Shown here: positions 13,134 to 35,401 of the stretch, in pieces
Layout of the letters: each line of letters opens with the position of its first letter
Position numbering within the stretch: the first letter of the stretch is position 1
Virus record (IMG/VR): IMGVR_UViG_3300029288_003766
Location: 89,787-153,786 of that record
Length of the DNA: 64,000 nucleotides
Reading direction: 5' to 3' (one strand)
Source of the DNA: a virus
Taxonomy: Duplodnaviria; Heunggongvirae; Uroviricota; Caudoviricetes
Position numbers and translations under genes: made by a program
The notes under the pieces: generated by a model
The model's database searches: none
What the model was told of the DNA's origin: nothing
Seen by the model: only the letters and a program-made list of their open reading frames with translations

Positions 13134-14705
13134 ATGGAAAAAGAACAAGGTTTCTTGTGTGAAAAATGTATTGAAGATCTGGGTAATACTGCTTATTCAA
13201 TATTTCTTATATCGGTATTTACTAAAGATTCTGCCAAAGCAATACTTTATGAAATAAAAGAAATAATTGAGATTTTGGATAACTGGATTAAGGCGCATCC
13301 TATTCACTTGTCGGCCACAGAATTGTTGCTAACTCGTTGTGATCAAGTTTTACTGGCATTAGAAGAAGAATTAAAGGTTGAGGTTTCTGGTTGGGGGTTT
13401 CGTTATCTTATAGTTTGCCAGAGTTGTTTTGATGAACATTGTAAGGACTATCCTTTGAGATGATAGAAGAGACTGCATTTGATGTTTTGTGCAAGCAAGC
13501 TATAAAAGAGTTGGAGTGCAAGTATTTGAATCGCTGGTTGATGTTCTCTTTTCGGAAGATGATTGCTATTATGGAATATTTATATTCTAACGATAAAGTT
13601 GCTCAGCAGTCTTTGCTCGCGGATCTGAAGTTTAGGATGAACCAAATAAAGGGTGAACAGGATGAAGATAATAAAAAAGGAAAAGGGTTCCATTGGCATT
13701 AAAGGGGAGAGATAAATGAAAATTAACAAGAAAATAGAAGAAAAAGCGGATGAGATAATACAGAAGGATTCGATTATAAATTGTTATCTCATGAAATGTA
13801 AGAAAGCGAGAATTTGCCCTGAATGTGGAGAATCTATTATTCACATGAGAGAGAGTTTTTTTGAATTTGGTGATAAGTGCTCTAAATGTAATTGGAATGA
13901 TATTGCAAATTATACAACGGAGGATTAATGAAAATTGTAATTAAAGTAAATACATATGAAGACAAAGAGGGTAAAGATTGTGGTGCATTGACAGATATGT
14001 TTGAGGTGGTTACTACTGGTGATAACCAAAAGTTTTTAGATTTAGTAGGCAAGATAATTTTACTTATATCTCCTGAAAAACCAGCTGATAAAACCGAAGA
14101 TAAACCTACAGACAGTAAAGAAACTAAGCCATTAGACACAGTAGTGGAGAAAAAAGATGAAACAGGACCAAAATAAATATATCAGCTCTGATATTGTTGA
14201 TAAATGGATGAATAAAAAACCAACTAAGTGGGATAATATTTATTGGTTTATGCGACATGGGCTTTGGCGATGGTTAGGTGATAGACCAATGAAGATTACT
14301 TCGTTCTTCCACCGTGGTTACAGAGGTTGGGCTGAGGAAGATGTGTGGGGTTTCTATTACTATCTATCTAAAATTATTCTAGACGGCCTGGAGTACCTAC
14401 AGGAACACAAACACGGGTATCCAGCTACTCTGGACGGTATGACTGGTAAATATGGATATGATATGGATCGCTGGGATAAGATTATGGATGATATGATTGA
14501 GGGTTTCACTCTGGTTAGGGAGTGCGCCAAGGGTGAAGATTTAGAGATTGGGTTTAACTATCATAGCGAAGAAGAAAAAGATAAAATGAACAAGCATATG
14601 CAAGAGAAATTTCCAAACTGGCGGCTTACAACAAAGGAGGAAGAGGAGAAGATAAATAGAGCGTTTGATCTTTTTAAAGAATACTTTTTTAATTTGTGGG
14701 ATTAA
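13134..14705 (+). other. run of five hypothetical genes (13134-13463, 13460-13702, 13716-13928 Zn ribbon, 13928-14176, 14157-14705)
   Basis: Packed, coupled ORFs; no recognisable catalytic motifs. Confidence 0.6.
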
Positions 14706-14716
14706 CAAGGAGAAAA

Positions 14717-15004
14717 ATGAATATTAAACCATTAAGAGATAATGTGATTGTTAAAGTAGACAAGGCTGAGGAAAAATCTGTGGGGGGTATTTTGATACCC
14801 GAAGCTACCCGGGAAAAACCATATGAGGGTGAGGTTATTGTTGTAGGACCCGGGAAGGTATTGGATAATGGTTTGATACAGCCTTTGACTGTTATTGCTG
14901 GTGATAAAGTGATATTTAGCAAGTATTTTACATCAGTTTCTATTCCAGATTGTGAAGACATGGTTGTAATGAACGAAGATAACATTTTAGCTATAATAAA
15001 ATAG
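14717..15004 (+). CDS. groS: co-chaperonin GroES
   Basis: MNIKPLRDNVIVK...GGILIPEATREKPYEGEVIVVGPG...GDKVIFSKY...MNEDNILAII. Confidence 0.95.
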   Translation: MNIKPLRDNVIVKVDKAEEKSVGGILIPEATREKPYEGEVIVVGPGKVLDNGLIQPLTVIAGDKVIFSKYFTSVSIPDCEDMVVMNEDNILAIIK

Positions 15005-15011
15005 AGGAAGA

Positions 15012-15161
15012 ATGAAAAAAAACCTAGAAGCAGTAGTTGAAATTATTAGAACTGACGATTTTCGTGTTGATGTTATAATTAAAAGACAAGGGAAAGTACC
15101 ATTGGAAAAGACTTTGTGTGTTGGGGACAAAATAAAAATAAACTCATTAAGGGAGGAATAA
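15012..15161 (+). CDS. 49-aa hypothetical protein between groES and groEL
   Basis: SD GAGGA, own translation [21 protein letters not shown]...; TAATG overlap with groEL start. Confidence 0.5.
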
Positions 15162-16783
15162 TGTCTAAGCAACTTTTGTTCAAAGAGGAAGGTCGTAGGA
15201 AGATTTTAAATGGTGTAGAGCAGTTGGCAGCAGCTGTAAAAGTGACCCTCGGTCCAAAAGGGCGTAATGTGGTCATTGGTAGGAAATATGGATCACCACT
15301 CATTACCAAAGACGGGGTTACTGTAGCTAAGGAAATTGAATTGGAAGATCCTTTTGAGAACGCTGGAGCACAAATGGTTAAAGAAGTAGCTGAGAAGACT
15401 TCAGACATTGCCGGCGATGGTACTACAACAGCTACTATATTGACTGAGATAATCTATAAGGAAGGCCTTAAAAGTGTTACCGCAGGATCAAACCCCATGG
15501 CTTTAAAAAGGGGCATAGAGAAGGCAGTTGATAAGGTTGTGGAAGAGTTAAAGAAGTTATCTACTCCTGTTAAGGATAAGAAAGAGATATCCCAAGTAGC
15601 CTCAATAGCTTCAAATTGTGATATAACTATCGGCAATCTTATTGCTGATGCTATGGAAAAGGTTGGCAAAGATGGTATTATTACTGTTGAGGAGGCTAAG
15701 TCTACTGCTACTACTTTAGATGTGGTGGAAGGTATGCAGTTTGAACAGGGGTATTTATCACCCTATTTTGCTACTGACAATGAGAGGATGGAGGCAACAT
15801 TAGAGGATGCTTATATAATGCTTTATGATAAGAAGATGAGCGCTCTGAAGGATTTACTTCCAATATTAGAAAAGATTGTTCAAGCTAGAAAGCCTCTGTT
15901 AATTATTGCTGAGGATGTAGAAGGTGAATCTTTGATGGCTCTTATTGTAAATAAGATCAAGGGAATACTACCAGTATGTATAGTTAAAGCACCTGGGTTT
16001 GGCAGTAGGAAGAAAGAGATTCTTGAGGATATTGCTGTCCTAACTGGTGGTAAAGTAATTTCTGAGGAAGCTGGGCTAACTTTGGCTAATGCTACGATAG
16101 CAGATATGGGTAAGGCGAAAAAGATTAAGGTTACTAAGGATCTTACAACTATAGTTGAGGGGGCGGGTACTACAGAAGCAATTGGTGTTAGGGTTGCTCA
16201 GATAAGACACCAGATAGAAGCTACCGAGTCAGATTATGATAAGGAGAAGATACAAGAAAGACTGGCCAAGCTATCGGGTGGTGTTGCAGTTATTGGTGTT
16301 GGTGCAACGACTGAGAGTGAGATGAAAGAAAAGAAGGCTAGAGTTGAGGATGCTCTGCACGCTACTAGAGCAGCTGTGGCCGAGGGTATAATTCCAGGTG
16401 GTGGCGTAGGGCTGTTAAGGACTATACCTAAACTTGCTGAGTTAAATCTTGAGGGTGATGAGAAGATAGGATTGAACATTGTAAAAAGGGCGCTAGAGGA
16501 ACCTATTAGGCAGCTGGCCAGCAACGCGGGTATAGATGGATCAGTGGTAATTATGAGTATAGCAAAAGCTGGTACTAATATTGGGTATGATGTTCTTAAT
16601 GATGCTTATGTTGATATGATTGAAGCGGGTATTGTCGACCCTACTAAAGTTACCAGATCAGCCTTACAAAATGCTTCATCAATTGCTGCTTTGATGCTTA
16701 CTACTGAGGCAGTTATTACTGATAAACCTGAGAAGGTGAATGCTCAACCCGATATGCCTCCTGCTGGAATGGGGATGTATTAG
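15161..16783 (+). CDS. groL: chaperonin GroEL
   Basis: [41 protein letters not shown], Gly/Met C-terminal tail. Confidence 0.98.
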
Positions 16784-16910: not shown

Positions 16911-17551
16911 ATGAAAAAGAATGTAGTTATTGATAAGAAGGACAATCTACCTGATTTAGAACAATTTGGTAAGTATAGAGAAGGTTTGACAAGTGAGGAA
17001 ATTGTAGAATATCTACGGCAAGTATACAATATTGTAGCTAAAAAGAAGAGGAAGATTTGCCCACCCAAAATTGTTAAACAGTTTAATGAAATTGCTGGAG
17101 TTAATACTTGCGCGGTTGGACCTGGTGGTGAATCTCTAATGTATCGTCATGATATACAGAGGTTCGCGGGGAAGTTATTTTTTAATCAGGAGACATATTT
17201 CGATTAGGAGGTAAAATGGATCTTAAAAAATTTTTAGGTAGGAGGGTAAAGAAGCTAAGAAATGAAAACAGTAAACTCGAGCTTGCTCAGTTTTCAGAAC
17301 CTATGACTATTTTTATAAATCAGGTTAAATCTATAGAGATGAGGGGCAATGTTCCAATGGTGAATATAGAGGTAACTAGTAAGGTGCTGAAATCTCTTAA
17401 AGACGCTGTAGAGCTTAATAGAATGGTTGTCAGGAGTGTGGAACGACGTTTGCACCCCCAAGTGGGTGATATTATTACTGTAATAGAAGACGATCCGACT
17501 GATGTTTACAAACAGATCTTATTTGAGTTAGCACGAAGAGGAAAGATATGA
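16911..17551 (+). other. two hypothetical genes (16911-17207, 17216-17551)
   Basis: SD-preceded ORFs. Confidence 0.6.
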
Positions 17552-18297
17552 AGAAGATTGATAGTGAAAACCCCATAAAACCTAACGGGCATTCTGATGT
17601 TTTACAAGATTCTTCTACAAATTATGTATACTGCTATTGTGATCCTAGAAAACCTTACAATAAAATAGTGTATCATAGTAAAGTAGCGTTTGAGCCATTT
17701 TATGTTGGGTGTGGTATACGAGGTCGTAGATTTCGTCATCTCACGTCAAATGATACTAATAAGCTCAAAGTAAATAAAATTCGTAGTATTCAAACAGAAG
17801 GTTTGAATCCTATTATTTTAATTTTGAAAGAAGGGTTGCCTCCAAGTCTGGCTCGTTCAATAGAGATGTTTGTTATAAAAGAGTTAGGTACTATAGCTAA
17901 TGTTTCAGGAGTCAGAAGAGGTATTTTAACTAATTTAACTCCTGGAGGTGATGGTGGTCCTACGTGGTTTGGACGTAAGCATACACCAGAGCAACTAAAA
18001 AAGATGAGTTTTGCTCAGATAGGTAAAAAACGATCTGACAGTGTACGTCAAGCTATGAGTTTAGCTCAACAGAAGAATACGTTTAGGTCACTAGAGCATT
18101 TAGAGAAGCTACACCTGGGACATAAAAATATGCCTGATGCCTCTAGAGAAAGAATAAGTAAAGCGACTAAAGGAACGAAATGGGTGTATAACCCCGTAAC
18201 GTTAGAAAGAGAACGTATTTTAATTGATTTATTAGATACTTATATGCAAAAAGGATGGAAACTTGGGCATCACGGGTTTCCAAAGGAGGAAAAATGA
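17548..18297 (+). mobile_element. free-standing GIY-YIG (LEM-3-like) homing endonuclease with NUMOD3 repeats
   Basis: YVYCYCDPRKP...PFYVGCG...LTNLTPGGDG, GRKHTPEQLKKMS. Confidence 0.8.
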
Positions 18298-18985
18298 AAA
18301 ATAAAAGCTTAATTGAATCTTTTGAAAATATTAAAGTTTTTACTAATGTGGAGCCTAAGGTTACAAAGACTTCTCAAGGCCTTGTCTACGATTTTTCAGA
18401 TGTCTTATCTCTTATCCGTAGTAAATCTATTTCGGCAGAGAACGCTAGCTCGGATGATATAAAGAAATTTTGTGGTAAGAGAGGATTGAAGATTACTAAG
18501 GGTAGCAAGCAGGAACAACTTAAATTCCCGTTTGGAGAATGATAATGTATAATTACAAAATTGGTTATGGTAGCTATGAAGAGTCAAGTTATAGAGAGCT
18601 TCAGCATGAGAAAAAATTTATTGATGAAGAGATTACTGAGATGATAGCTGAGGCTGTAGTAGATACAATCAAGAAAATGAAGATGGACACTAGATATTAC
18701 ACTCATAATTTTCAGGATGTTTTTGAGGGTTGTTATAAAAAAGATTGCCCCGATGTATGCAAATATTTAATAGAAAAGTTTGGGTTTAAACCAATAGAAT
18801 ATGAGCTATTTTGGAGTGTATTTGGATGGCCATCAATTTTTGATAAAACAGATTGGGAAGGTGGTAGAGACAGCCAAAATGACCATTTGAATAAGATTAC
18901 TGAAGCTGTAAATAAGGCAGGTTTTACTAGAGAAGATGATTCACATCTTTCGATGATGAATGATTATAGTAAAAAGGAAGAATAA
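18294..18985 (+). other. two hypothetical genes (18294-18542, 18539-18985)
   Basis: Coupled ORFs. Confidence 0.6.
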
Positions 18986-19686
18986 TGGATGAAAAAGTCA
19001 GATTGGAAGAATGGAAAGTACTTGAGAGAATAAAAATTTCTTATTTAAAGCATAGGGGGCAAACTTTAGATATTGCTGAAGAAACTAATCTTCCTATTGA
19101 ATATGTTAAGAAACAAGTAGAGAAGATTGAGAAGAAAGAATCTAGGGATGTTTCTACTCGTATTGCTAATAACCTTACCTCTATTATTTTGCAGGGAATT
19201 CAAAGCAGGACAATTAGATTTATGGAAGAGCTTAAAAGTTTAGAAGGTAGAGAACAAAATCTATTATCTGCCTGTTGTAGCTATCCGGTAAGGGAATCTA
19301 TAGTGGATAATCTAACCTTATATACATGTTTGAAGTGTGACAAACAATGTAATGCTGTATTAGCTGACAAGATAACTATTTATGAGATGAAAAACCAGAT
19401 TCTAGTGCAACTTAGGGAAGAGGATCGGTTTATAATTGAAATGGCCGAGAGGATGGGTTATACCAATAAGCCTATAGAGGGGCCCTCTACTATTATCCAG
19501 GTAAAGCAACAAAATCTTGTTTTAAATACTGATGAAGATAAGAAAATTGCAGCAGATTACTCTCAGCTTAAACCTATGGATAGGGAACTACTGATAGAGA
19601 AGCTAAGGAAGGAAATTTTAAAAATTGATGAGCAAATTAAACGAGAAGAAACAACGCCGGCAGGGGATTCAAACCCACTACGATAA
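18985..19686 (+). CDS. candidate terminase small subunit (N-terminal HTH, central Cys cluster)
   Basis: Directly upstream of and overlapping terL; TLDIAEETNLPIEYVKK HTH-like; CC...CLKC...C. Confidence 0.45.
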   Translation: MDEKVRLEEWKVLERIKISYLKHRGQTLDIAEETNLPIEYVKKQVEKIEKKESRDVSTRIANNLTSIILQGIQSRTIRFMEELKSLEGREQNLLSACCSYPVRESIVDNLTLYTCLKCDKQCNAVLADKITIYEMKNQILVQLREEDRFIIEMAERMGYTNKPIEGPSTIIQVKQQNLVLNTDEDKKIAADYSQLKPMDRELLIEKLRKEILKIDEQIKREETTPAGDSNPLR

Positions 19687-21583
19687 TTTAATAGCACAGA
19701 ATTACAAAGAACCGCCTGTTGATATTTGGAAATTCTTGTGTGATGATCAGTTTTTGGGAGTGAGTACTCACCAAGGGGATGATATATTTCCTATATGGAA
19801 AGATGCGCTCATCAAAGTGTTTGATGATATGTCTAAACTAGTGGTGGTTCTTACAGGATCTGTCCGTACCGGCAAGACTACTATTGCGGTTTATGGTTTG
19901 GCCTATATAATGTATCGGCTGCTTATTACACATGATCCTTGGAAGTATTTTAAAGCAACAAAATCAAGCAAGATGGCTATCATATTTTTTAACCTAAGCA
20001 AGACTTTGGGTGGATCAAGAGGTTACGCAAAACTTCAATCTTGTTTGGTTAACTCACCTTGGTTTAGGAGTCATGCAAGTTATATTAAACAGACAAAAGG
20101 TGAAGAAGAGTTGGGGTTTTCGTTATTTGAATTTTTGTTAGCGTCCCCGCTCAGCCAAGGATATGGTATAGTTGGATCTGATGTGGTTGCTGGTATTTTG
20201 GATGAGGTTGATTCGGAAGACGCCCCCCTATCCCAAAAAAGACGAGTTCTTAATGTCTATAACGCAGCTGAGATTAGGTTTAAGACTACTTTTGCTCCTA
20301 CAGGGACAAGCTTAGGAAAGTTATTTATTGTTTCATCAAAACAAGATGAACTTTCATTTATGGATGCTTTTATAGCGGAGAGGAAGAAATTTCCTGAGGT
20401 GATTATATTTGATATTCCTCTGTGGGAGGCTCAGCCTCAGAGTAGGTTCTGCGGTGATATGTTTTTGGTAGCTGTTGGAGATTCCTATAACCCGCCCCAG
20501 ATTATTGAAAACAACCAGGAAGAAGAATTTAGAAGTAAGGGCTACTCAGTAATAAGAGTTCCTATAGAGTTTAGGAACAATTTTAATACTGATTTGATTA
20601 GGGCCTTAAGAGATATTGCTGGTATAACTGTGGCTGGATTGAGGAAATCAAAGCTATTTGCCTCTAAACAAGATATCCTGAATTGTATGAATGATTCTAC
20701 TAAACTTAACCCCGTCAAAGTTCAGGAAATAGAAACTGGATTAAATGACCCCGATGAGTTTATTAAGTATTTTGATTTAAGCAAGATTCGCCTACCTAAG
20801 AGTATACCAAGATATATACATTATGATATTGCCTTCTCAGGTGCCGGGGATGCAGCAGCAATATCTATGGCTGGGGTAAAAAAATGGAAGACATCTGATG
20901 TTCAAAATGATGATGGAACTTATCGTAAGGATTTAGTTCCTGTTATTGAAACTGATTTTACATTAAGAGTTAAAGCACATTCTGGAGATAGGATTCCTTT
21001 TTGGAAAGTTAGAAAATTGGTGTTAGATCTCAGGGCCGCGGGGTATTTTATTGCTCTATTTACAGCTGATTTGAAGAATATGTCTGAGGATACACAACAG
21101 TTGCTTACCCAGGCTGGGATAACTACTGATGATTTAAGTATGGATAAGACTCCTCAACCCTATTTTTCGTTTCGTGATCTTGTTCAGGAAGGTAGGTGGG
21201 TTTGTCATCATCTTCCTCTGTTGATTACTGAATTAGATAATTTGGAACATAATAAAATTGACGGAAAAATTGATCATCCTGATAAATTTATTGATACAGA
21301 ATCTGGAGATGAGGAAAAAGTTTTAATCGGATCCAAAGATTTAGCTGATGCTACAGCAGGAGCTGTTTATGATTGTATTAAGTCAGCCAAGAAACCGATG
21401 GATATGGAGTTAATGTCTAGTTTATTAAATAAAACCGCAAGTAAACCGTTGGCTAATGAGGAGGATATGACAAAAATACTTGCACCAAAAGAAGGTGAAC
21501 GTGTTATAGGTACTAAAAAAGCAGACGGAAGTATCGATAAAATCAACGACATATTCAAAAGGATCCATAACCGAGGCGGGTAA
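19628..21583 (+). CDS. terminase large subunit
   Basis: Walker A TGSVRTGKTT, Walker B ILDEVD, motif III FIVSS, nuclease YIHYDIAFSG..DAAAI and KDLADATAG. Confidence 0.9.
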   Translation: MSKLNEKKQRRQGIQTHYDNLIAQNYKEPPVDIWKFLCDDQFLGVSTHQGDDIFPIWKDALIKVFDDMSKLVVVLTGSVRTGKTTIAVYGLAYIMYRLLITHDPWKYFKATKSSKMAIIFFNLSKTLGGSRGYAKLQSCLVNSPWFRSHASYIKQTKGEEELGFSLFEFLLASPLSQGYGIVGSDVVAGILDEVDSEDAPLSQKRRVLNVYNAAEIRFKTTFAPTGTSLGKLFIVSSKQDELSFMDAFIAERKKFPEVIIFDIPLWEAQPQSRFCGDMFLVAVGDSYNPPQIIENNQEEEFRSKGYSVIRVPIEFRNNFNTDLIRALRDIAGITVAGLRKSKLFASKQDILNCMNDSTKLNPVKVQEIETGLNDPDEFIKYFDLSKIRLPKSIPRYIHYDIAFSGAGDAAAISMAGVKKWKTSDVQNDDGTYRKDLVPVIETDFTLRVKAHSGDRIPFWKVRKLVLDLRAAGYFIALFTADLKNMSEDTQQLLTQAGITTDDLSMDKTPQPYFSFRDLVQEGRWVCHHLPLLITELDNLEHNKIDGKIDHPDKFIDTESGDEEKVLIGSKDLADATAGAVYDCIKSAKKPMDMELMSSLLNKTASKPLANEEDMTKILAPKEGERVIGTKKADGSIDKINDIFKRIHNRGG

Positions 21584-21638
21584 TATGATGAATAAACACA
21601 AGAGTTCAGACAGCTAAAGATACGACTAGGAGCAACTT

Positions 21639-22205
21639 ATGCAGCATGATGATTTTACATCCTGGACACCAGAACATTGTAAGAGGATTATACACGAGTA
21701 TCAACATACTAAAAATAAGGAATTGTTTAATTTGCTATTGGCTAGGTATGATAAGTATTTGGTAAAGCTAGCATGGCACTACCAAAAACATTTTATATCT
21801 GTACCGCTAGAGGATCTATACCACTCTGCAATAGTGGGATTTGGAGAATTTTTAGTTCAGTTTAAACAACAGGCACCATCAAGATTAATAATGGCTGTAA
21901 TAAAAGCGTATGTTAAAACAGAAATAGAGGCCCGATATAGGAGTAAACAGGAATACGAAATCAGTAATTTTAAGAGTAATAATGAGGATGAACATAGCTT
22001 AGACGATATAATGGACGCGCACTCTATCCTAGGCTCTTCTTTCTTATCTGAAAAAGAAAAGAATCTATTAATGTTACGGTTTGAAGAAAATATGACTTTC
22101 AGAGAAGTTGGCAAAAAGTTTGGTATTACCGAACAGGGGGCTTGGCAGAGATTTAAAAAGATTGTGGGGAAGATTCGTAGAGTAATGAGGAAGGAGGAAA
22201 GATGA
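21639..22205 (+). CDS. sigma-70-family RNA polymerase sigma factor
   Basis: Region 2-like LLARYDKYLVKLA...LEDLYHSAIVG; region 4 LSEKEKNLLMLRFEENMTFREVGKKFGITEQGAWQR. Confidence 0.8.
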   Translation: MQHDDFTSWTPEHCKRIIHEYQHTKNKELFNLLLARYDKYLVKLAWHYQKHFISVPLEDLYHSAIVGFGEFLVQFKQQAPSRLIMAVIKAYVKTEIEARYRSKQEYEISNFKSNNEDEHSLDDIMDAHSILGSSFLSEKEKNLLMLRFEENMTFREVGKKFGITEQGAWQRFKKIVGKIRRVMRKEER

Positions 22206-22456
22206 CGAAAATTTTAGGTTTCTTAATGGTTGTTGGCGGAGTTGTTCTTGGTATATGGTTAGGTGTATTTGTTTGTCTTATAGGTGGGATTGTTCAGATT
22301 TTAAATAGTTTACCACACCAGGCATTGGGAGGATATATTAATACCAACGCCTTAGGAATTGCTTATGGAATTGTTAGAATATTGTTTTCAGGAGCAATTG
22401 GATGGTTGGTGGGTACTTGTGTTGTGGGTTTGGGTTTGGCATTAATGGCTGATTAA
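22202..22456 (+). CDS. small membrane protein (2-3 TM helices)
   Basis: Gly-rich hydrophobic stretches. Confidence 0.65.
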   Translation: MTKILGFLMVVGGVVLGIWLGVFVCLIGGIVQILNSLPHQALGGYINTNALGIAYGIVRILFSGAIGWLVGTCVVGLGLALMAD

Positions 22457-22663
22457 ATGAGATTGTATCCTGTAGTATTCAAAGCAGCTACCAAAGAACA
22501 GATTGCACGAAGACCTAATCCTATGAGACCAAATTTTACTTGGAGTGTTACAATTGATTTAGAAAGGGTCCATAGTATTAACCTAGAAAATGAATTGGCA
22601 AGGTTTTTGGGCAATGAAGCAAGAGTTGCTATGGATCAACTAGCTATTGATTTCCTGGTTTAA
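22457..22663 (+). CDS. FKAA-tagged minigene carrying a copy of the MCP spine-helix region
   Basis: VVFKAATKEQIARRP + RPNFTWSVTIDLERVHSINLENELARFLGNEARVAMDQLAIDF; 21/45 identical to MCP at about 63768-63900. Confidence 0.85.
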   Translation: MRLYPVVFKAATKEQIARRPNPMRPNFTWSVTIDLERVHSINLENELARFLGNEARVAMDQLAIDFLV

Positions 22664-22675
22664 GGTGGATTATTA

Positions 22676-22900
22676 ATGGAAACAAATGATATTGTAGTAT
22701 TCAAAGCAGCTACTAAAGAACAGATAGCTAGAAGACCTAAGCATAATCTGAATAATCGTGATGCTCTTATAACTACTTGGTCACCTTATATTGAGAGCGT
22801 TCGTAATTATATGCGTAATCAAGGACATCCTTTAACTGAAGATAATGAGAGAAATATAGCTCGTTGCTTGGAAAATTCTTTGAATAGGTATATTGAATGA
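22676..22900 (+). CDS. FKAA-tagged minigene carrying a copy of the MCP N-terminal propeptide
   Basis: VVFKAATKEQIARRP + WSPYIESVRNYM...LTEDNERNIARCLEN vs MCP WNPYITSVRNYM...LTENDERNIARCLEN. Confidence 0.9.
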   Translation: METNDIVVFKAATKEQIARRPKHNLNNRDALITTWSPYIESVRNYMRNQGHPLTEDNERNIARCLENSLNRYIE

Positions 22901-23076
22901 AACCAATATTTAAAGCAGCAACATCAGAACAGATTGCCAAACGGCCAAAATCTACGTCGAATTATCTTAATGCGGGATTTATTTATGCTCCTTATACTCC
23001 TGTGTATGGAACACCAAGAATTATTATGGATGAACTTCGTGTAAGGGCATCAATTAGGAAACTGCAGGATGAATAA
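22897..23076 (+). CDS. FKAA-tagged minigene (59 aa, not in ORF track) carrying a gp23-type C-terminal motif
   Basis: MKPIFKAATSEQIAKRP + NYLNAGFIYAPYTPVYGTP, resembling the AG(Y/I)xYAPYxP motif of gp23-type MCPs; ATGA-coupled. Confidence 0.75.
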   Translation: MKPIFKAATSEQIAKRPKSTSNYLNAGFIYAPYTPVYGTPRIIMDELRVRASIRKLQDE

Positions 23077-25220
23077 AATTAATTTATGCCCACAATGTAA
23101 AACTGGAATATTAGTATGTTGTCCGTCTAAGGATCAAGTAGATGAATGGACTACATATTGTTTGCAGTGTGATTACAAAGGTCTGCACAAAAGAATTAAA
23201 CAAACACTCATAGATTTCCCAGATAGGAGGGAGGAGTAATGGAAGAAATTGATTTTGTAAAATCACTAGATAAAGACGGGATTTACATAGTGGGATTTTC
23301 AAAGACTTGGAGTATGGATCAAATAAAAGAGTTCTTCGAGATAACTCGTGGTCTGGGATTACAGATTATGGGTGTCTACTCAGATGGGTTTACTCTAATG
23401 GAGCCAATTGGAGTTGATAAAGAGAAACTGAGGGAATTATTAAAATGAAAATAAAAACAGTTATTTACGGAAGAAGTAATACGATACATCGCACTAAACT
23501 TTTAAATATAGAAGTAGACGCAAAAACAGGAGAAGTGGTATCTGTTTGGTTTAGATGTTTAGCATTGCCTTTCAACATAACTAAAACAGATAAAGAAAGA
23601 ACAGCGGAAATGAAAAGAATGTATAAAGAAAACAAGCCAAATGAAATTAACGCTATTGAGATATTGAATGAAAACTAAACTATTCTTCATACTTATATTG
23701 CCTTTATTGATGCTAGGATGTGCTAAGCAAGATCCTGATGAAATAAATTTAAGAAGTATCTATATAAAGTTGGCTCAGAACAACGCTTTACTAAAAGAGC
23801 AGAATGATAATTTAGGAAAAATTTTAAATATTTTAACTGCCAATAGGGAAGATGATTTAAAACAAAAAGCCTCATGGGGGACTTCTACTTCTAAAAAGTA
23901 AAGGGATGTATAGATAATAATGGTGAATAAAACGGAGGATGAATACTATGGACAAAGCCCAAAGGTTGGCGATAATACTTTTGGTTTTCTGTGGATGTTT
24001 TATAGGCTTACTGGGAAAAATAGAGGGAGTTGCTTTGATGTGTTTGGGTATTTGGCTTATGCAACTAATGCATGAAACATAATTGGAGGTATTAGTATGG
24101 GAAAGTTTGAAACCAAAACATATTTTCTAAGCCCGAAGGATGTTGAAATAATTTGGTTGGATAAGAAAGGTGATGTAATAACCGATTCAAACAAAGTTTG
24201 TATTTCTTATCTTTGGGAAGCTAAATTTACAGGAGCAGGAGTAAACATAGATCCTTTTCTAGTCCAAAGGATAAAATTTCCTGAGTTGAAAAATGATTTT
24301 AGTAGTAGTGAAAGAGAGGATTATTTGGTAGAAGTAGAGGTTATTACTGACCAGAGAGTAATAGAATGTCATGAGAAGATAAAGAAGATGGATAAATAAC
24401 TGGGGAGGATAAAATGATTAATGATAGTGGTTGTGACCAGACTAAAAGAAAACCGACACAAATAGAAGAACAAATAGATTGTTGTGAGAAAGGTATATGT
24501 AATTTAGAAACTTCAATAAATACTTTAGAAAATAGGTTGGGGGGAGTGCTGACAAAATTTCTTGATTGTAAAAAAACTGAAGGAAATGTTGAAATAGAAT
24601 TAGTTCCCCTAGCTAGTGTATTAAGAACTTTTGCTAATAGGATAAATAAAGCTGTGGGGAAAATTAATGATATAGAAGGTAGAATAGAGATATAGAAGAT
24701 TAATGTAAAATGATGGGGGCTGGTATGAAACCAATTGATTTTAAACAATCTAATGTTGTATTCGCTAAGGATCAAGCACCATATCTTCCTTTACCTGCTT
24801 ATAGAGACGATATTCAAGGAGGAAGGATTTTCCATTGTTGGGAGTTAACTATTAAAGAGAGGTTTAAAGTTTTATTTACAGGTAAGCTTTGGGTAAATGT
24901 TTTAAATTTCGGAAAGCCACCTCAGCCTTTAAAGCTTATGGTGGATAGTCCATTTAAAGACAGGAGGCTTAATGGATACAAGAACAGGTGATATAGTAAA
25001 TATGGATACGGTAGAAAAGTTGAAACTTGATCCAAAGACAGCTCCGCAAGCTAAATGGTATAAAGAGATCCCACCGGAGTTATTACCACAGTTGGAAGGA
25101 ATGAATAGAAAGCAACGGCGAGCTTGGTATTCACAGAATAAACATTTATTTAAGAAAATCTCACTTGAAGATATTGTGCCAATAAAAACAGTAGAGGAAA
25201 GTTTTAAGGAGAATATATGA
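23069..25220 (+). other. run of small hypothetical genes (23069-23239 Zn ribbon, 23239-23448, 23445-23678, 23668-23901, 23948-24082 membrane, 24097-24399, 24414-24695, 24710-24991, 24972-25220)
   Basis: Packed, coupled ORFs on + strand. Confidence 0.55.
23668..23901 (+). CDS. putative lipoprotein
   Basis: MKTKLFFILILPLLMLG-C signal peptide with lipobox. Confidence 0.55.
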   Translation: MKTKLFFILILPLLMLGCAKQDPDEINLRSIYIKLAQNNALLKEQNDNLGKILNILTANREDDLKQKASWGTSTSKK

Positions 25221-25780
25221 AATACAGAAAGAAACCTGTAGTAATCGAAGCAACGCGGTGGTTCAAGAATGGTGATCATCCGCAGGATAATTGCTTCAGG
25301 CCGTTTGAGGATACAGGTGCTTACCCAACAGAACCAAGAGAAGGAGCGGTTGTTAGGTATTATCGGCACCCTAGTATAAGTGGAGTATCTATCTGCTCAA
25401 AGTGTGGGCATATGATGCATGGACATGGATGGATAGATACTCTTGAAGATGGTCATAATGTCTGCCCAGGAGATTGGATCATTACAGGAATCTTGGGCGA
25501 ATATTACCCCTGCAAGCCAGATGTGTTTGAGAAAACATATGAAGAGGTTAATAACACCCTAACTAATATTAATGAAGTTCTGCAGAGATTAAAATATCCT
25601 ATTGATTTAGACGGGATTTCTGTTCCAGAAGCTATAGCAGCTATAAAAGATATTTTGATTAGTGGACTGCCAAAAGAAAGAGATGTTAACCTACCTCCAT
25701 TTGGGCATTATGAGCATGCGTTCAAAGAAGGTTACAATTGGTGTCTTAAAGACGTTATTAAGACAATAGAGGAGGCTTAA
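25217..25780 (+). CDS. conserved phage protein (MKYRKKPVVIEA / PGDWII...YPCKPDVFEKTY family)
   Basis: Characteristic N-terminus and PGDWIITG motif. Confidence 0.75.
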   Translation: MKYRKKPVVIEATRWFKNGDHPQDNCFRPFEDTGAYPTEPREGAVVRYYRHPSISGVSICSKCGHMMHGHGWIDTLEDGHNVCPGDWIITGILGEYYPCKPDVFEKTYEEVNNTLTNINEVLQRLKYPIDLDGISVPEAIAAIKDILISGLPKERDVNLPPFGHYEHAFKEGYNWCLKDVIKTIEEA

Positions 25781-26343
25781 TGGATTATATTCCGCAAACA
25801 GGTGATGTGTTTTTAGTAGACAGCAGTAAAATAGGTCCAAAGATTGTTAAGTTTCTGCAGACTGCGCCTACGCTTTGGCAATATATTTGGAGGGCTATTA
25901 GAGGCACACAGCAGACGGTTAGATACTTTCATGCTGGTATGGTTTTAAACTCTACACAGGTCATAGAGCAGCAATGGAAGGTCCAATATGGCCAAGTATC
26001 TAAGTTTTTGGGCAAAAGAGTGATTGTTTACAGATTTAAGCATATAACACCGAGTATACAAAACGCTTTGTCTATAGCAGCTTTAGAGGATCTTGGCAAG
26101 GCTTATGATATTCCTTTGGTAATCGGCAGGACCATAACTTGGTTGACAGGTATTATGTGGTTTACAGACTTTTTGGGAAGGATCACGAAGGAAGAAGAAT
26201 GGTGCGTGACCAGGCTGGCCGAATGGTGGTGGCCATGGTGTAAGTTTGGGATCGGGGACCATAGTGAGATAACAACTAAGGTCATAGATGAATATTATTC
26301 AAAACATTCTGATGAATGGGAGGTGGTATACCAAAATGGCTGA
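25780..26343 (+). CDS. permuted papain-like NlpC/P60 (YiiX/YebB-like) enzyme
   Basis: GDVFLV, YFHAGMV (His), GKAYD, EEWCVTRLAE (Cys). Confidence 0.65.
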   Translation: MDYIPQTGDVFLVDSSKIGPKIVKFLQTAPTLWQYIWRAIRGTQQTVRYFHAGMVLNSTQVIEQQWKVQYGQVSKFLGKRVIVYRFKHITPSIQNALSIAALEDLGKAYDIPLVIGRTITWLTGIMWFTDFLGRITKEEEWCVTRLAEWWWPWCKFGIGDHSEITTKVIDEYYSKHSDEWEVVYQNG

Positions 26344-26860
26344 TCCAATTTCTCAGGACTATAAGGACGGGTATAAAGACGGATATGAAAGGTGTGAATT
26401 AGCGAAGATACATACATTGAAAACAGCTAAAGCTATACGCGAACAATGTGATAAGGATATAAAGAAACTACAGAAGATTTGTAAGCATCCTAAGGTTACT
26501 AATGATGTGTTTGAATCTTACGGTCCGGGTCATTTCACAGGAAGGGTGTTAAAGATATGTGCTATTTGTGAAAAGGTACTTGAAACTAGAGGAGGCTATC
26601 CCGATCTTGGATCTAATTTTGGTAAGGTGCAAGATCCTAAGTTTGGTGTAAATCAAAAGCCGCAGGTTCCCAGGCCGAAGGATCCTCCAAAAGGTCAAAA
26701 ACCTAAGGATGAGTGCTCAAACTGCCGAGGAACTGGCCAGGTTCCTTGGGATGCTATAGGAAGTGGATATGAGGGAGATCTATTTGGTTGTAAGATCCCT
26801 GATCATATTGAGTGTGATAAATGTAAAGGAACAGGGAAGTTAGATAAGAGAAGTAAATAA
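26336..26860 (+). CDS. Cys-rich protein with DnaJ-type CxxCxGxG zinc-finger repeats
   Basis: CSNCRGTG and CDKCKGTG, plus CKHP/CAIC. Confidence 0.6.
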   Translation: MADPISQDYKDGYKDGYERCELAKIHTLKTAKAIREQCDKDIKKLQKICKHPKVTNDVFESYGPGHFTGRVLKICAICEKVLETRGGYPDLGSNFGKVQDPKFGVNQKPQVPRPKDPPKGQKPKDECSNCRGTGQVPWDAIGSGYEGDLFGCKIPDHIECDKCKGTGKLDKRSK

Positions 26861-26861
26861 A

Positions 26862-27581
26862 ATGAAAAATAAAGCAATAGCAATAATCGGAATAGTATTT
26901 TATATGTTAGGAGTTATACTGTCTGCTGAAGATTTACAAGGAAGTCCCAGATTCCCACCAATGTTAATATTGATTTCTGGAACAGGAATGTTGATGTTCA
27001 TCATTATGGCAACGATTCACCTCTGGAAAGATAAGAGATACCTATCAGTAATTCTAACATTATCAACCATCCTTTTTGGTGTATTAACAGTAATTTGCGA
27101 TTATGTAAAATTAAATGTAATTATCTTAACTAATATAACTTCGGTGGTTTGGATCATCGCATACTTTTGGACAATAGTAACACTCTTTAGGAAGAGAGAC
27201 TATGAAACGCTAAAGGAGAAATAATATGAAACAAGATTGGATGAAAAAAAGAACAAGAAAGATAATACCGATAGGCGGTTATGATGTGGTTGAAATAGCA
27301 AATATTGTTACTAATGGTCCACAAAGTAGTAAAGACGGACAAGAATATCGCCCTGCAAGGCCTCTGCCCTATTATTGTCTTTTAGATAGGATTAGGCTGG
27401 CTGTAGATGTTTTAAGATATAAAGCAGATGTTATATATTGGAGCGAATAAAATTAAGGAGGATTAGAATGGACATTATATGCCCTTTTTGTGGTTCAGAT
27501 AATTGCGTAAAAAGCCCGGATGTGGGTGATTTTATCTGTGATGATTGCGGAGAGTATTTTACGGAAGCGGATCTGTTATAA
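26862..27581 (+). other. membrane protein (26862-27224), hypothetical (27226-27450), 37-aa Zn ribbon (27468-27581)
   Basis: Four hydrophobic helices in the first; CPFCG...CDDCG in the last. Confidence 0.55.
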
Positions 27582-27826
27582 TGAATGATCTACCAGTTGT
27601 AGTATTCAAAGCAGCCACCCAGGAACAGATAGCTAAAAGGCCACGGCCCAAAAACTCTAATGATTTCGGATCATTCTCTGAGGTGCAAATGAGGATGGTT
27701 GTATTACGTTGGAAGCCTTATATAGATGCGGTTAATGACTATCTTCATCAGAACCTTTACAACCATCCAGATTATAGGGAGGAGTTTGGTAAGGTCTTAT
27801 CAGAATTTAGGGAGCGGAATAGGTAG
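27581..27826 (+). CDS. FKAA-tagged minigene with a diverged MCP-propeptide-like segment
   Basis: VVFKAATQEQIAKRP + RWKPYIDAVNDYL (MCP has SWNPYITSVRNYM); true start at 27581 by TAATG overlap. Confidence 0.7.
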   Translation: MNDLPVVVFKAATQEQIAKRPRPKNSNDFGSFSEVQMRMVVLRWKPYIDAVNDYLHQNLYNHPDYREEFGKVLSEFRERNR

Positions 27827-27854
27827 TTAGGTTAAAAATTTAGATCAAAATCAG

Positions 27855-27897
27855 AGCGTAGTAGGAGGGATAACATTTCCTTTTACTACGCTTTTTT
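27855..27897 (+). terminator. rho-independent terminator
   Basis: Stem AGCGTAGTAGGAGGGA / TTTCCTTTTACTACGCT followed by a T-run, before a ~115-bp AT-rich gap. Confidence 0.85.
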
Positions 27898-28339: not shown

Positions 28340-29239
28340 ATGAATAACCCCTATGGCTACATTTATGAAACAACTAACTTACTGAATAATAAGAAGTATA
28401 TTGGTCAAAAGAAGGGTAAATTTAATGGCTGCTACTATGGTAGTGGCCTTATTCTTAAAAAAGCTATTCAGAAGCATGGCATAGGTAGTTTTAATATCAA
28501 AGTGTTGACAAGTGCTGAAAACAAGGCCAAACTTGATGAATTAGAACGATCTTACATAGCTGAATACAGAAGGATATTTGGGCGTAGGGGGTTATATAAC
28601 ATTGCCAACGGTGGTATCAATGGTGATGTTTTGGATATTAGAGATAAAACTTATGAAGAAGTATATGGTAAAAAGAAAGCAGCCGAGATAAAGAAGAAGA
28701 TTGGTGAAGCCAGCAGGGGGCATATATTGTCACAAGAGGGTAAAGATAAGATCAGTAAGGCCTTATCTGGTAAACCAAAATCAGAAGAACATAGGGCAAA
28801 GTTACGTGTTTTGATAGCTCCTAGGGAAACTAGAAAATGTCAATGTTCTTCTGAGTGTACTGAAACATTTGTTTGCAAAGTAACATCTGAGAAAAGATTT
28901 ATTCAGAAACACATAAACAGGGGTGAAAATAACCCGTCTTTTGGTATGGACAGATCTGGTGAAAATGGTCCAACTTATGGGCATAAGTGGATGCATAAAG
29001 ATATTGATGAAAAATTAGTAAAGGCAGATGACATCTTAAAATATGAACAACTGGGGTGGGTTTTTGGTCGTATATCTGACACTATAGAGCATAGGGATAA
29101 ACTGCATCAAGCTCAAACAGGAAGAAGATATATTTATAATAAAGAAATAAATAAATCTATGAGAGTTAAGGAAAAAGATGCTCCAACATATATTAATAAT
29201 GGTTGGATATTTGGGAGGGGATTAAAATTAACATATTAA
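28340..29239 (+). mobile_element. Seg-like GIY-YIG homing endonuclease with NUMOD3
   Basis: YGYIYETTNLLNNKKYIGQ, YYGSG, GLYNIANGG, GKPKSEEHRAKL. Confidence 0.88.
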
Positions 29240-32200
29240 AATTCCTGCGGGGAAAACTTGTTCCACCAAGGACTCCAGTAACTCCTGCTGAGGTCAAAGC
29301 AGTAGTGGGGAATAAAGATAATTCAGAGCTATTCAGGACCTATGGTATTACGAATGATGCGCTGAGACAGGTTATAGCTGATCAAAATTTAATTATATAT
29401 GAAAGATCAAGCATTTATCAGGTTGTGGACCGTTCTCTTTGTTTTACTGGTGATACAAAAGTGGCCTTGCTGGATGGTAGAGATATAGAGATTAAACAAT
29501 TAGTAGAAGAGTTTAATCAAGGAAAAGTTAATTATGTATACTCTATTGATAATGTGGGAAGAAGATTAGTCCGTAGTCCAATTAAATGGGTGGGTAAGAC
29601 TGGAACTAAAGAAATTATAAAAGTTGTTTTAGATGATGGTTCAGAGATTAAATGTACTCCGAACCATCTTTTTATGTTAAGAGATGGTAGCTATAAAGAA
29701 GCTAAGGATCTCCAGCATGATGAATCTTTAATGCCTTTATATAGATATATAGATAACTATAAACGTAAGGGATACTGGAGGATATATAATCCGTTTAATC
29801 AGCATATAAATAAAGAAAAAGAATATTGTGTCCAGTATTTATATTTTAATAAGGATAGGCCAAAAGGAACTATTGTTCATCATGCCTTCAAAAACTTCTA
29901 TGATTTTAACCAGAATAAGCTAGATGATACTCCTGATAATCACCAAATAATTACAAAGTCTGAACACAACTCAATTCACGCTGATTTACACCCAAAACAA
30001 AGTTGGATGATTATTTTGAAAACTACTAATTATGCTAAATATCTTGAGTGGTGCAGGAATATAAGTATTAGCCGGATAGCTAAAAAGATCCCTACTTGGC
30101 AAACAGGTTTGACTAAAGAAACAGATGAAAGGTTATCTAAACTATCTAAAAAGATGACTGGAGTGAAGTATCCAGAAGAGCGTACTTTCAATTCTGTTGT
30201 TACCCAATTACAGAATAAAAGGGGTATTAGTAGAGAAGAAGCTATTAAGATTTACCAATTTAATAGGACTAATATTCTATGTCCTATTTGCGGTAAATTA
30301 ATGGACCCTCATAGGAAAACTTGTTCTTACGAATGCAAGTATGAAAAACAAAGAATTGATAAAATTACTCCTTGGAATAAAGGTTTAAAGAATCATAAAG
30401 TTAAAGAAATAATCCAACTAGATGTTGTTGAAGATGTTTATGATCTTACTGTGGAACCTTATCATAACTTTGCTTTAACAGCAGGAGTTTTTGTTCATAA
30501 TTGCCATGCTTTGATGTCTGCGGCCTGCGTAGCCTTTGCCGATTGTGCAACTATTAGGTCCCCACTCCACGGATCTACAGTCTGGGTTACATCAGATAAC
30601 AAAGAATATAGATATCAGCTGGAGAAGATGCTTGATGTCATTAATATAGAAGAAGTTATATATGATTGGGCGTGGACCTGTGCCGCATTTGGGGATATGT
30701 TTGTAGAAATCTTCGGTGAGCCTGGCGTGGGCATCGTCTGTGTGAATGATGACAACCACCCGATTAATGTAAGCCGCGTGGATCATAATGGTAGGCTTGT
30801 AGGCTTCTTCCAGACACCGCTTGGTTATGCTACATCTGATACACGTAAGCTTCTTGCTCCTTGGGACCAAGTTCATTTCAGATTACTAGGTGCCAAAAAG
30901 CGAAGACCACTTTACCAAGACCAGCAATATTCGGAATTTAGAACTATATCAATTATGACACCCGACGCTCGACGCTTGACCTCCAAGTACGGAACTTCCA
31001 TTTTAGCCGACGCCCTCCCGGTATGGAAGCGATTGCGACTCGCTGAGGATTCTATTATGATTGCACGTATCATGAAGAGTCCTCAGCGTTTTCTTTTTAA
31101 GGTGGTAATACCAGATGATAACTCTAATGCTGAGGCAGTAGCTAACCTTGTCGACCAATATCAAGCGGAGATAAAACGCTGTTTGGTTGGTGACACAAAA
31201 ATAGCCTTGTTGAACAATACGAATCCAACAATTAGGGAAATGGCGGAGAACAAAGAGAAATACATCGGAAAATATGTTTATAGTATAAACCCAATTACTA
31301 AAGCTATTGAGCCGGATAAAATTGTAGATGTGGTGAAGACAGTTGTTGATGCTACTGTCATGAGGGTTCACTTGGACAATGAGGAGTATGTCGACTGTAC
31401 TCCGGACCATAGGTTTATGATGCGAGACGGTAGTTTCAAGGAAGCCAAGGATTTAACTCGGGGTTACAGTTTGATGCCTCTATACATGAGGATTAATGAC
31501 GAAAGAAGACGAAAAGTATTTAATCCGAAGACTGGCAAGTTCTCATTGGTTTACAAACTAGTTTCTGAGTGTATTGACGGTAAGACTCCTACGGATTGTG
31601 TGGTTCACCACGAAAACGAGAATAAGCTGGACGATGATCCATCTAATCTAAAAATTGTTACTAAACACGACCACATGTCGATTCATCATCTGTTCAAGGA
31701 TAAGATAATAACTAAACATGGAACGAATGAGGCTTGGAATAAAGGATTAACTAAAGAGACCGATGAACGTGTTGCTAAATACGCAAAGACTGTTGGAGAA
31801 GTTCAAAGAGACTTGTATGCTCTTGGGTTAAAGAAGGTTTGGAACAAGGGTCTAACGAAAGAGGAGGACCCGAGGATGCGTATTATCTCGGAGAAGGTTA
31901 AGGAAAGCAATCCTATGGGTCGTCCAGAGGTTCGTGCCAACGCTTCTAAGTCTAAGATGGGCAACCATAATAAGCCTCGAGTTCTGAGAGAAACTAGAAT
32001 TTGTCAGTGCGGTTGCGACGGAACATTTGAATGCAAGTCAAACTCTGAGCAGACGTATATACATAATCACCACAGGAAGAACAAAAGAAACAGCCTTGAT
32101 CATAACCAGAAGATTGCGTTCGCACATTCTAAGCACGAACATGCCGTTGTAAACCACAAAGTCGTCAGAGTTGAAGTCCTTCCATATACAATAGACACTT

Positions 32201-35028: not shown

Positions 35029-35396
35029 GTCTATCTAAAGACATAACAGAGATCAAAAAAGTATTTGAAGCTGATGAACCTATCTTTAAACCAGCCAGTC
35101 CAGAAAATATAGGCAAGAGAAAAGAAGAACGTGAGAGAGAACTGGCTAAACAACCTATTATTCCTGTTGATCAGGAAGCATATGATTTGGATGTGAAGGC
35201 TTGGGAGTCATTAAATAAGTTGAAGCGCAGGATAGAATATCTACGAGCTCATTATAATGTAGACCAATGCAAGTGTAGTTGGGAACGTATAGAACTGGCT
35301 GGTGAGGATATAGAGCAATGTGATATACCAGGAGAGAGTGGATGTGCTGATAGATATTGTTTGCGATGTGGTGGTTGGGTAGATACTACTTATTAA
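35025..35396 (+). CDS. leader-family protein with Cys-rich payload
   Basis: MSLSKDITEIKKVFEADEPIFKPASPENIGKR; CKC...CADRYCLRC. Confidence 0.8.
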   Translation: MSLSKDITEIKKVFEADEPIFKPASPENIGKRKEERERELAKQPIIPVDQEAYDLDVKAWESLNKLKRRIEYLRAHYNVDQCKCSWERIELAGEDIEQCDIPGESGCADRYCLRCGGWVDTTY

Positions 35397-35401
35397 TGAC
35401 T

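Follow-up and report, generated by a model that had tools for sequence, protein, structure and literature searches.

Each of three adjacent minigenes of a Caudoviricetes phage, here called m1, m2 and m3, joins a short N-terminal tag, FKAATxEQIAxRP, to a copy of a different piece of the phage's own major capsid protein (MCP). They lie in a 64,000-nucleotide stretch of DNA (the window), which is part of the virus record IMGVR_UViG_3300029288_003766 (214,968 bp, 37% G+C). We conclude firmly from the sequences that m1-m3 are real small proteins in which a head-cargo tag is fused to copies of capsid assembly elements, and that this design recurs. What such proteins would do is a more tentative matter. 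The reading that we place first, and hold with somewhat less than even confidence, is that they are tag-docked mimics of capsid assembly interfaces that may modulate head assembly. A preliminary description of this DNA had pointed to three adjacent open reading frames (ORFs) of 59-74 residues that share the tag and have no MSLEKD leader; all three are present on the + strand and each carries the tag, 4-8 residues past its start codon. These genes, their tags and the parent of their payloads are as follows.

22457-22663, + strand: minigene m1, ORF of 68 amino acids
22676-22900, + strand: minigene m2, ORF of 74 amino acids
22897-23076, + strand: minigene m3, ORF of 59 amino acids
22478-22516, + strand: tag of m1, FKAATKEQIARRP
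22700-22738, + strand: tag of m2
22909-22947, + strand: tag of m3
62964-64000, + strand: gene of the gp23-type MCP (Pfam Gp23), the parent of the payloads, truncated at the window end

The arrangement of the genes is compact. The start codon of m1 directly follows the upstream stop (TAAATG), m2 has a ribosome-binding site (AAGGTGG) 8 nt upstream, and m3 overlaps m2 by ATGA and is in turn overlapped by the next gene. All minigene copies are in frame, intact and translationally coupled.

In the whole genome the MCP has 490 residues; it matches Pfam Gp23 (E 9e-14) and aligns with the solved T4 gp23 structures 6uzc, 5vf3 and 8t9r (E 1e-17). Payload homology was assessed by tblastn against the whole 215-kb genome, and its significance by setting each observed score against 2000 shuffles of the payload. 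The m1 product is 41% identical to the MCP gene product (E 1e-13), a match spanning MCP residues 250-313 in the reciprocal search, with the payload itself homologous to 267-313. The payload of m2 (22751-22882) is 66% identical to MCP 18-61 (E 5e-17) and that of m3 (22960-23046) 41% identical to MCP 435-463 (E 2e-6). Shuffling gave z values of 24.7, 29.3 and 13.5 for m1, m2 and m3, the observed score being reached by 0 of 2000 shuffles in each case. The proposal that these ORFs are tagged MCP fragments is thus upheld, as is the assignment of the m2 payload to the N-terminal propeptide. The other two assignments held in part: m1 does contain the spine helix, but together with a P-domain strand and the short acidic helix, and m3, described as the C-terminal YAPY strand, does lie near the C terminus but is the P-loop hairpin some 30 residues before it.

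The pieces follow the order middle, N-terminal, near-C-terminal, and each has its own tag, so that we rejected the idea of the array as a decayed full-length MCP paralogue. There is no second full capsid gene in the genome, and a Pfam scan of the minigenes gave no matches up to E 0.1. Members of the HK97-fold family PF07068 have complete A, P and insertion domains over ~450-520 residues; here the payloads cover only the three MCP segments given above. Within its segment m1 retains the acidic and polar helix residues (IDLE..H..NLE.EL), while small and hydrophobic positions are altered. In the capsid proteins themselves the copied segments are invariant across five sequences that are 70-82% identical overall to this MCP.

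Two further observations concern the MCP gene and its surroundings. In the 434-bp spacer that follows it lie 18 residues copied from the MCP C terminus at 78% identity (genome 154473-154526, equivalent to window 64687-64740), and just beyond it, at genome 154654-155535, a gene for a 294-residue protein with an MSLEVDITEIK leader, endonuclease-like by eye from its zinc-finger and basic repeat motifs. Together these look like the footprint of a mobile insertion. The MCP insertion domain (157-234) is 49% identical to a segment of a 511-residue protein (genome 182663-184195, E 2e-13) in what its neighbours make an apparent tail or baseplate region, and a surface domain thus appears to be common to head and tail proteins.

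The tag is not confined to the minigenes. The whole genome has ~37 copies of the motif, which fall into three groups: 15 directly follow a 15-residue leader of the MSLEKDITxIKxLVE type, whose end is an L/I/V-x-E site resembling those that T4 gp21 cuts; 14 are found at internal junctions of multi-unit proteins; and eight stand at the extreme N terminus of leaderless proteins dispersed outside the head module. Consensus match is higher in the leaderless tags, at 10.75 of 11 positions against 7.7-8.1 for leader-bearing and internal ones (p 9e-5). The tags of m1, m2 and m3 match 11 of 11 consensus positions and belong to the family defined by the pattern F-K-[AP]-A-[TS]-x-E-Q-[IV]-A-x-R-P. Neither an MSLEKD-type leader nor an L/I/V-x-E site precedes the tag in m1-m3, which sets them apart from T4-type cargo with a capsid targeting sequence (CTS). 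Leaderless tags in other phages also retain the extension RPKP. The tag DNA of m1 (22472-22502) is identical over 31 nt to that of m2 (22694-22724), which suggests a recent duplication or conversion between the two tags. The motif is found in a set of relatives (G001 and L127-L135) and is missing from two complete relatives of 125 kb, with ~52% identity in the capsid protein. Two ideas about the tag were discarded. A derivation from the capsid protein's own N terminus fell when 13 capsid proteins all scored negative against a position matrix built from the 37 tags, and the long C-terminal part of the prohead protease was dropped as a candidate receptor specific to tag phages on finding the same part in tag-poor relatives.

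Other leaderless tagged genes outside the head module are located at the following genome coordinates.

24552-24848, - strand: leaderless tagged gene
64236-64397, + strand: leaderless tagged gene
64568-64819, + strand: leaderless tagged gene
35194-35780, - strand: leaderless tagged gene

In one of these four the tag is followed by two predicted membrane helices, another is rich in serine, and one, of 77 residues, has a probable orthologue in a relative (G001; contig L004 around 3740). Their payloads yielded no parent protein. No convincing virion-protein parent was found for the leaderless tagged ORFs at 64589 (+), 64248 (+) and 24836 (-). A tagged cargo protein of the leader-bearing kind (44722-45312) is a copy of the C-terminal domain of a 1263-residue head-module protein (56437-60228; 37% identity over 117 residues, E 7e-18), and for this reason tagged copies of head-protein pieces are taken to be a wider habit of this phage. 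Outside the group, a common phage family of 36-71 residues starts MSR-FKPASxEELAARG, fits the tag pattern and has lysine-rich, AT-hook-like tails (L015-L126, IMG/VR contigs). One of its members (L047, 11661-11849) is encoded ~400 nt 3' of a major head protein gene, with no + strand ORF of at least 80 residues between the two and a GroES-like gene nearby. This suggests that the FKAA/FKPA motif may be an old head-associated N-terminal signal, with the proviso that the search pattern itself selected for the motif.

The AlphaFold2 model of the MCP, made from a 10-sequence alignment, had a mean pLDDT (predicted local distance difference test score) of 40.5, being usable only for the helical propeptide; structural mapping was consequently based on the HMMER alignment to solved T4 gp23 and on the literature. 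The register of this alignment agrees with the published residues H282, M284, G292, V306 and V307 (PMC9546572). It places m1 at T4 gp23 265-311, comprising the P-domain strand, short acidic helix and spine helix, and m3 at 442-470, the P-domain beta hairpin with the P loop. The propeptide copied by m2 ends ~3 residues past the position aligned with the T4 maturation cut at E65 (predicted MCP cut ALLE63/S). Complex prediction for m3 together with m2 (alignment A2) and m1 gave a score of 0.01 against a mark of 0.32, a result that weighs neither way.

In T4, capsomers are linked at quasi-threefold axes via P-loop contacts and via charge contacts that the short acidic helix makes with P-domain strands (PMC9546572). 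All well-characterised T4 head-length mutations fall into three groups: one near the acidic helix (A268, A275, D285, D287), another within the P loop (T457, R460, G461) and a third in the N terminus at a probable contact with the scaffolding core (A66, A94, G97). Bypass of gp31 is conferred by mutations at G292, V306 and V307, in the spine helix, and at A455, in the P-domain sheet (PMC9546572). By our alignment the first and second head-length groups and all of the gp31-bypass sites fall inside m1 and m3. The third group begins one residue past the cut where the homology of m2 ends, and it lies inside a fourth fragment type seen in another phage contig and described below.

Conservation of the minigenes was assessed against a relative and against the MCP gene. 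The relative is a 1227-bp metagenome contig (L006) that includes the end of m1, the whole of m2 (84% identical) and genes downstream. Between the two m2 genes there are 18 synonymous and 14 non-synonymous differences, giving a ratio of non-synonymous to synonymous rates (dN/dS) of 0.155 at a dS of 0.54, with neighbouring genes at 0.14-0.15; m2 is evidently under purifying selection. Against the MCP gene, the proportions of synonymous (pS) and non-synonymous (pN) differences are 0.86 and 0.30 for m1, 0.63 and 0.25 for m2, and 0.48 and 0.35 for m3, the last giving a pN/pS of ~0.7 over 29 codons. The synonymous sites of m1 are thus saturated while its pN is still 0.30, so that m1 is judged to be an old copy held at the protein level. 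Neutral decay, an outcome considered in the preliminary description, is not what these values indicate for m1 and m2.

The payload of m2 appears also to track the resident MCP. With its own MCP it reaches a score of 156, compared with 107 and 86 for other minigene homologues, and positions 22847-22875 are identical over 29 nt to 63111-63139 of the MCP gene. A 15-nt identity is found at 22799/63063, and elsewhere the synonymous sites are near-saturated. Since a rough estimate from codon usage puts the chance of a 29-nt run amid such sites at ~2e-4, the patch is a probable result of gene conversion with the MCP gene. As a separate observation, the capsid genes of three distant relatives (L145 10001-13348, L146 10001-12536 and L147 3788-6173) are interrupted near residues 286-329 and 441-447 by insertions of ~0.3-1.1 kb, which may be introns, inteins or endonuclease genes and whose sites are within or next to the segments copied by m1 and m3.

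Homologues of m2 occur in at least three other phage contigs (P0004, P0007 and P0009), of which P0007 and P0009 were retrieved by an exhaustive HMMER search with m2. The P0007 product has 72 residues, 59% identity to m2 and a payload z of 21 against the present MCP; for P0009 the corresponding values are 67 residues, 53% and 14. In all four members of the family the stop codon comes 6-10 residues after a conserved CLEN motif, and four or more phage lineages share its tag and boundaries, at 53-84% identity. On a 20.6-kb contig (L014), P0009 is flanked by genes for a DnaB-type helicase and a primase, and Endonuclease_7 genes are close by. The next gene of that contig (5894-6241) provides the fourth fragment type, fusing the tag to MCP 83-127, that is, the N-arm and a P-domain strand (z 14.7). 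On a further contig (L134, 1157-1429, - strand) an untagged ORF of 90 residues in a block of small ORFs matches MCP 25-110 (z 8.5), from which it seems that capsid N-terminal fragments can also occur without the tag. A tagged ORF of 134 residues on the same contig had been thought propeptide-like from a likeness by eye, and was dropped on a z of 1.1 against this MCP.

Other searches returned less. No capsid fragments were found in the two complete tag-less relatives. Word-based searches for homologues of m1 and m3 recovered only the queries themselves, and that with m2 a single relative. A search for related loci gave none with m2 in viral contigs and none with the m2-family alignment in viral and metagenome contigs, and tblastn of m1 and m2 against cultured phages gave no match. 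The sequencing runs that contain this DNA are landfill, groundwater and freshwater metagenomes, with no RNA runs among those listed; contigs from four of them yielded the same strain and other copies of the tag, and no useful new alleles. In the ESM Atlas the look-alikes of m1 are clusters of Gp23-domain proteins of 69-89 residues, possibly truncated gene calls, whose score of 0.89 is under the 0.9 line, and a search there with m3 returned nothing named.

The preliminary description had placed the minigenes just downstream of genes for the large terminase subunit (terL) and a sigma factor, 40 kb from the MCP gene. These neighbours are now identified, and the MCP gene, starting at 62964, is indeed 40 kb downstream. 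The surrounding features of the window are listed here.

16911-27894, + strand: putative single transcription unit with terL, the sigma factor, the membrane protein, m1-m3, ~20 small ORFs without annotated function and m4
19625-21583, + strand: terL, matching annotated terminase large subunits by tblastn (~30% identity, E down to 6e-59)
21639-22205, + strand: sigma-70-like factor, region 4 (Pfam PF04545, E 1.9e-8)
22202-22456, + strand: small membrane protein of 84 amino acids, between the sigma factor and m1
27581-27826, + strand: minigene m4, tag and a diverged MCP-propeptide-like segment, the final gene ahead of a strong terminator
27605-27643, + strand: tag of m4
27853-27894: strong terminator, from a terminator scan
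14696-15004, + strand: phage GroES (Pfam Cpn10, E 3e-26)
15116-16783, + strand: phage GroEL (Pfam Cpn60, E 8e-80)
29203-33162, + strand: portal gene bearing an intein, with intein and HNH signatures
33162-55621, + strand: head-module genes with the same tag, after a cleavable leader of the MSLEKDITxIKxLVE type or at internal junctions
60639-62939, + strand: gp21-type prohead protease (Pfam PF03420), S77 domain at residues 39-178, with a long scaffold-like C-terminal part, an organisation that relatives retain
17548-18297 and 28340-29239: GIY-YIG/NUMOD3 endonuclease genes
4186-5655: TSCPD-domain gene with an intein containing a LAGLIDADG domain

Between 16911 and 27224 the largest intergenic gap is 55 nt; there follow 320 nt without an ORF of at least 90 residues, and then m4. 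From these small gaps and the terminator at 27853-27894, m1-m3 are probably co-transcribed with terL. The m4 payload is a weaker match than the others, with a z of 7.2 against MCP 27-52. PHROGs and Pfam scans of the minigenes' neighbours gave no family matches. The region around the portal and TSCPD genes is rich in mobile endonucleases.

Several known systems invite comparison. The T4 internal proteins IPI, IPII, IPIII and Alt, which have a CTS, likewise consist of a short N-terminal address peptide on otherwise unrelated small proteins, in a phage with a gp23-type shell and a gp21-type prohead protease (Pfam Gp23, Peptidase_S77), and the tag of the minigenes is common to head-module proteins having a CTS-like cleavable leader. 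Unlike them, however, the minigenes have no leader and no L/I-x-E cut site, their address being a second, retained motif. They are also encoded outside the head module and would carry a piece of the MCP rather than an anti-restriction or enzyme domain. Giant phages such as SPN3US and phiKZ load many extra head proteins by means of propeptides cut by a T4-like prohead protease (PMC5694885, PMC10052503); capsid-protein fragments are not described among such ejection (E) proteins, and the motif and cleavage rules are different. The T4 vertex protein gp24 and full-length gp23 paralogues (PF07068) were, like the payloads, duplicated from a T4-type MCP gene. However, gp24 keeps the whole HK97 fold and builds pentamers, whereas the minigenes keep 29-52 residues each, in non-collinear order, with a tag of their own and no Pfam match.

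The capsid-size redirectors of satellites (P4 Sid, SaPI CpmB and the PICI scaffolds) are small proteins that alter the capsomer contacts or the scaffold use of the helper, and the minigenes may work alike. The redirectors are not derived from capsid proteins, being parasite-encoded alternative scaffolds, and no homology to the minigenes is seen. In the Gol segment of T4 gp23 (sensed by Lit with EF-Tu), in CapRel and in CmdTAC, a short MCP segment or nascent chain is recognised by another protein. These, in contrast, are host sensors of the full MCP and involve no free capsid fragment encoded by the phage. The Gol segment (gp23 ~93-122) is aligned with MCP ~86-116; m1-m3 have no overlap with it, while the product of L014 5894-6241 does cover the region. 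A literature search for capsid fragments as decoys, mimics or tagged cargo, over reviews and head-assembly work on T4, SPN3US and phiKZ, found no capsid-fragment genes described, in keeping with the earlier statement that no family of tagged capsid-fragment peptides is known. Given this, the lack of a leader that CTS cargo would have and the lack of the fold of a capsid paralogue, we class the design as apparently new.

The reading that we tentatively prefer, that of assembly-interface mimics, ranks first because the pieces fit the contacts made in T4 at the capsomer junction and with the scaffold, because the tag ties the minigenes to the head system, because fragments and tag co-occur and because the genes are apparently on the terL transcript. 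From the observed anatomy, homology, selection, recurrence and tag link we infer the docking, the binding partners and the effect on assembly. The tag is the motif that ~30 head-module proteins would expose once their leader is cut, and most likely it would serve to dock proteins at a receptor that they share in the assembling head. Each payload, as a 29-52-residue copy of one MCP contact element, could then occupy a site meant for the full protein: m2 the scaffold site normally bound by the propeptide, and m1 and m3 the P domain of a neighbouring capsomer. Occupied in this manner, the sites might tune when, where or at what curvature capsomers join. Among the three functions proposed in the preliminary description, that of assembly or size modulators gains most, as the pieces hold or adjoin the T4 head-length clusters.

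Several points weigh against this. The minigenes belong to a variable block of small ORFs and not to the head module, and a relative with 70% identity in terL possesses that gene along with the sigma factor and the membrane protein, but no minigenes at the syntenic site. m3 is without clear constraint, and it is absent from the otherwise syntenic L006, where m2 directly abuts a zinc-ribbon gene; as two ATGAA repeats flank m3 in the present genome, it is seemingly a clean presence/absence cassette, gained or lost. Such variability, and the placement among helicase and primase genes in L014, fit accessory or conflict genes better than core assembly factors. The T4 mapping is a distant alignment (E 1e-17), and the copied segments are the best-conserved parts of the MCP, so that their overlap with the T4 mutation clusters could be a by-product of conservation.

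A possible but rather doubtful alternative is that the minigenes act as decoys or blockers of host immunity that senses the MCP, their epitopes binding a sensor without activating it or soaking it up before the full MCP accumulates. Capsid proteins are common triggers of defence, as in CapRel, CmdTAC, Thoeris and CBASS (review PMC13728456; for CmdTAC, PMC11618068). The variable accessory block, the presence or absence of m3 and a payload that tracks the resident MCP would all suit such a role, and the position of the L014 homologues among replication genes suggests expression ahead of late capsid synthesis. The second fragment of L014 moreover covers the region aligned with T4 Gol. However, in the present genome the minigenes appear to be co-transcribed with terL and hence not early, and for this uncultured phage or its host no sensor is known. 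Isolated fragments can also trigger more strongly than the folded protein (lambda gpV 1-78, HigBAC), so that a decoy could backfire, and the head-cargo tag on every fragment and the absence of fragments in tag-less relatives would go unexplained. The last objection, as regards the head-cargo link of the tag, applies equally to chaperonin-directed peptides, an unlikely alternative in which segments that govern the chaperonin dependence of the MCP engage the phage GroEL/GroES or host GroEL and prime, regulate or compete for folding. Phage GroES and GroEL are encoded ~6 kb upstream, fusion proteins bearing the T4 gp23 N terminus are directed to GroEL (PMC3012670), and the gp31-bypass sites G292, V306, V307 and A455 fall in the segments copied by m1 and m3 (PMC9546572). 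Yet bypass mutations mark regions that limit folding rather than demonstrated GroEL-binding sites, and m1 conserves charged surface residues, not the hydrophobic ones that a chaperonin would bind.

It is improbable, to a greater degree again, that the minigenes are weapons against co-infecting relatives or capsid-hijacking satellites, dominant-negative pieces that poison the shell assembly of a competitor. They do correspond to elements of assembly interfaces, and the locus is variable, with homing-endonuclease genes at 17548-18297 and 28340-29239 and Endonuclease_7 genes beside the homologues in L014 and in the P0007 contig. But over the segments copied by m1 and m3, and over the P-loop strand that would be one of the binding sites, the resident MCP and those of relatives do not differ, leaving no apparent basis for sparing self; this weakens the dominant-negative proposal made when the genes were first described. 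In addition, the identity of m1 with known capsid proteins of the group does not exceed 41%, and a search of cultured phages turned up no closer donor. Least probable, by a little, are functionless by-products, MCP pieces captured behind a recombination-prone tag or left by endonuclease-driven partial duplication, and tolerated. The 31-nt identity of the m1 and m2 tags, the partial second copy of the MCP C terminus that closely follows the MCP gene, beside an endonuclease-like gene, and the dispensability and weak constraint of m3 would agree with this. It is countered by the purifying selection on m2, by the protein-level conservation of an ancient m1, by the shared tag and boundaries of the m2 family over its lineages and by the intact, in-frame and coupled state of all copies. 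Neutral debris is therefore contradicted for m1 and m2 as far as their sequences tell, and not for m3.

It is an open question how very large capsids set their size and keep coat-protein polymerisation from running away. Genetic work on T4 puts the control points at the quasi-threefold junction and the N terminus, and this phage has copied the pieces that hold or adjoin them into separate tagged genes. Should the minigenes be directed at the host instead, they would represent the first capsid-fragment decoys encoded by a phage against capsid-sensing defences. Under either reading the tag is a handle on the receptor by which cargo would dock in the head, and peptides of capsid origin, where they bind capsomers, could be put to use in the engineering of phage heads. 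Beyond this one phage, we think it possible, if somewhat doubtful, that huge phages use an undescribed class of tag-addressed mini-proteins made from their own MCP: propeptide, acidic P-domain helix with spine helix, P loop and N-arm. As mimics of the quasi-threefold junction and of the scaffold contact, these may let the phage act in trans on the nucleation, curvature and size of the shell, or may equally serve to blind capsid-sensing immunity.

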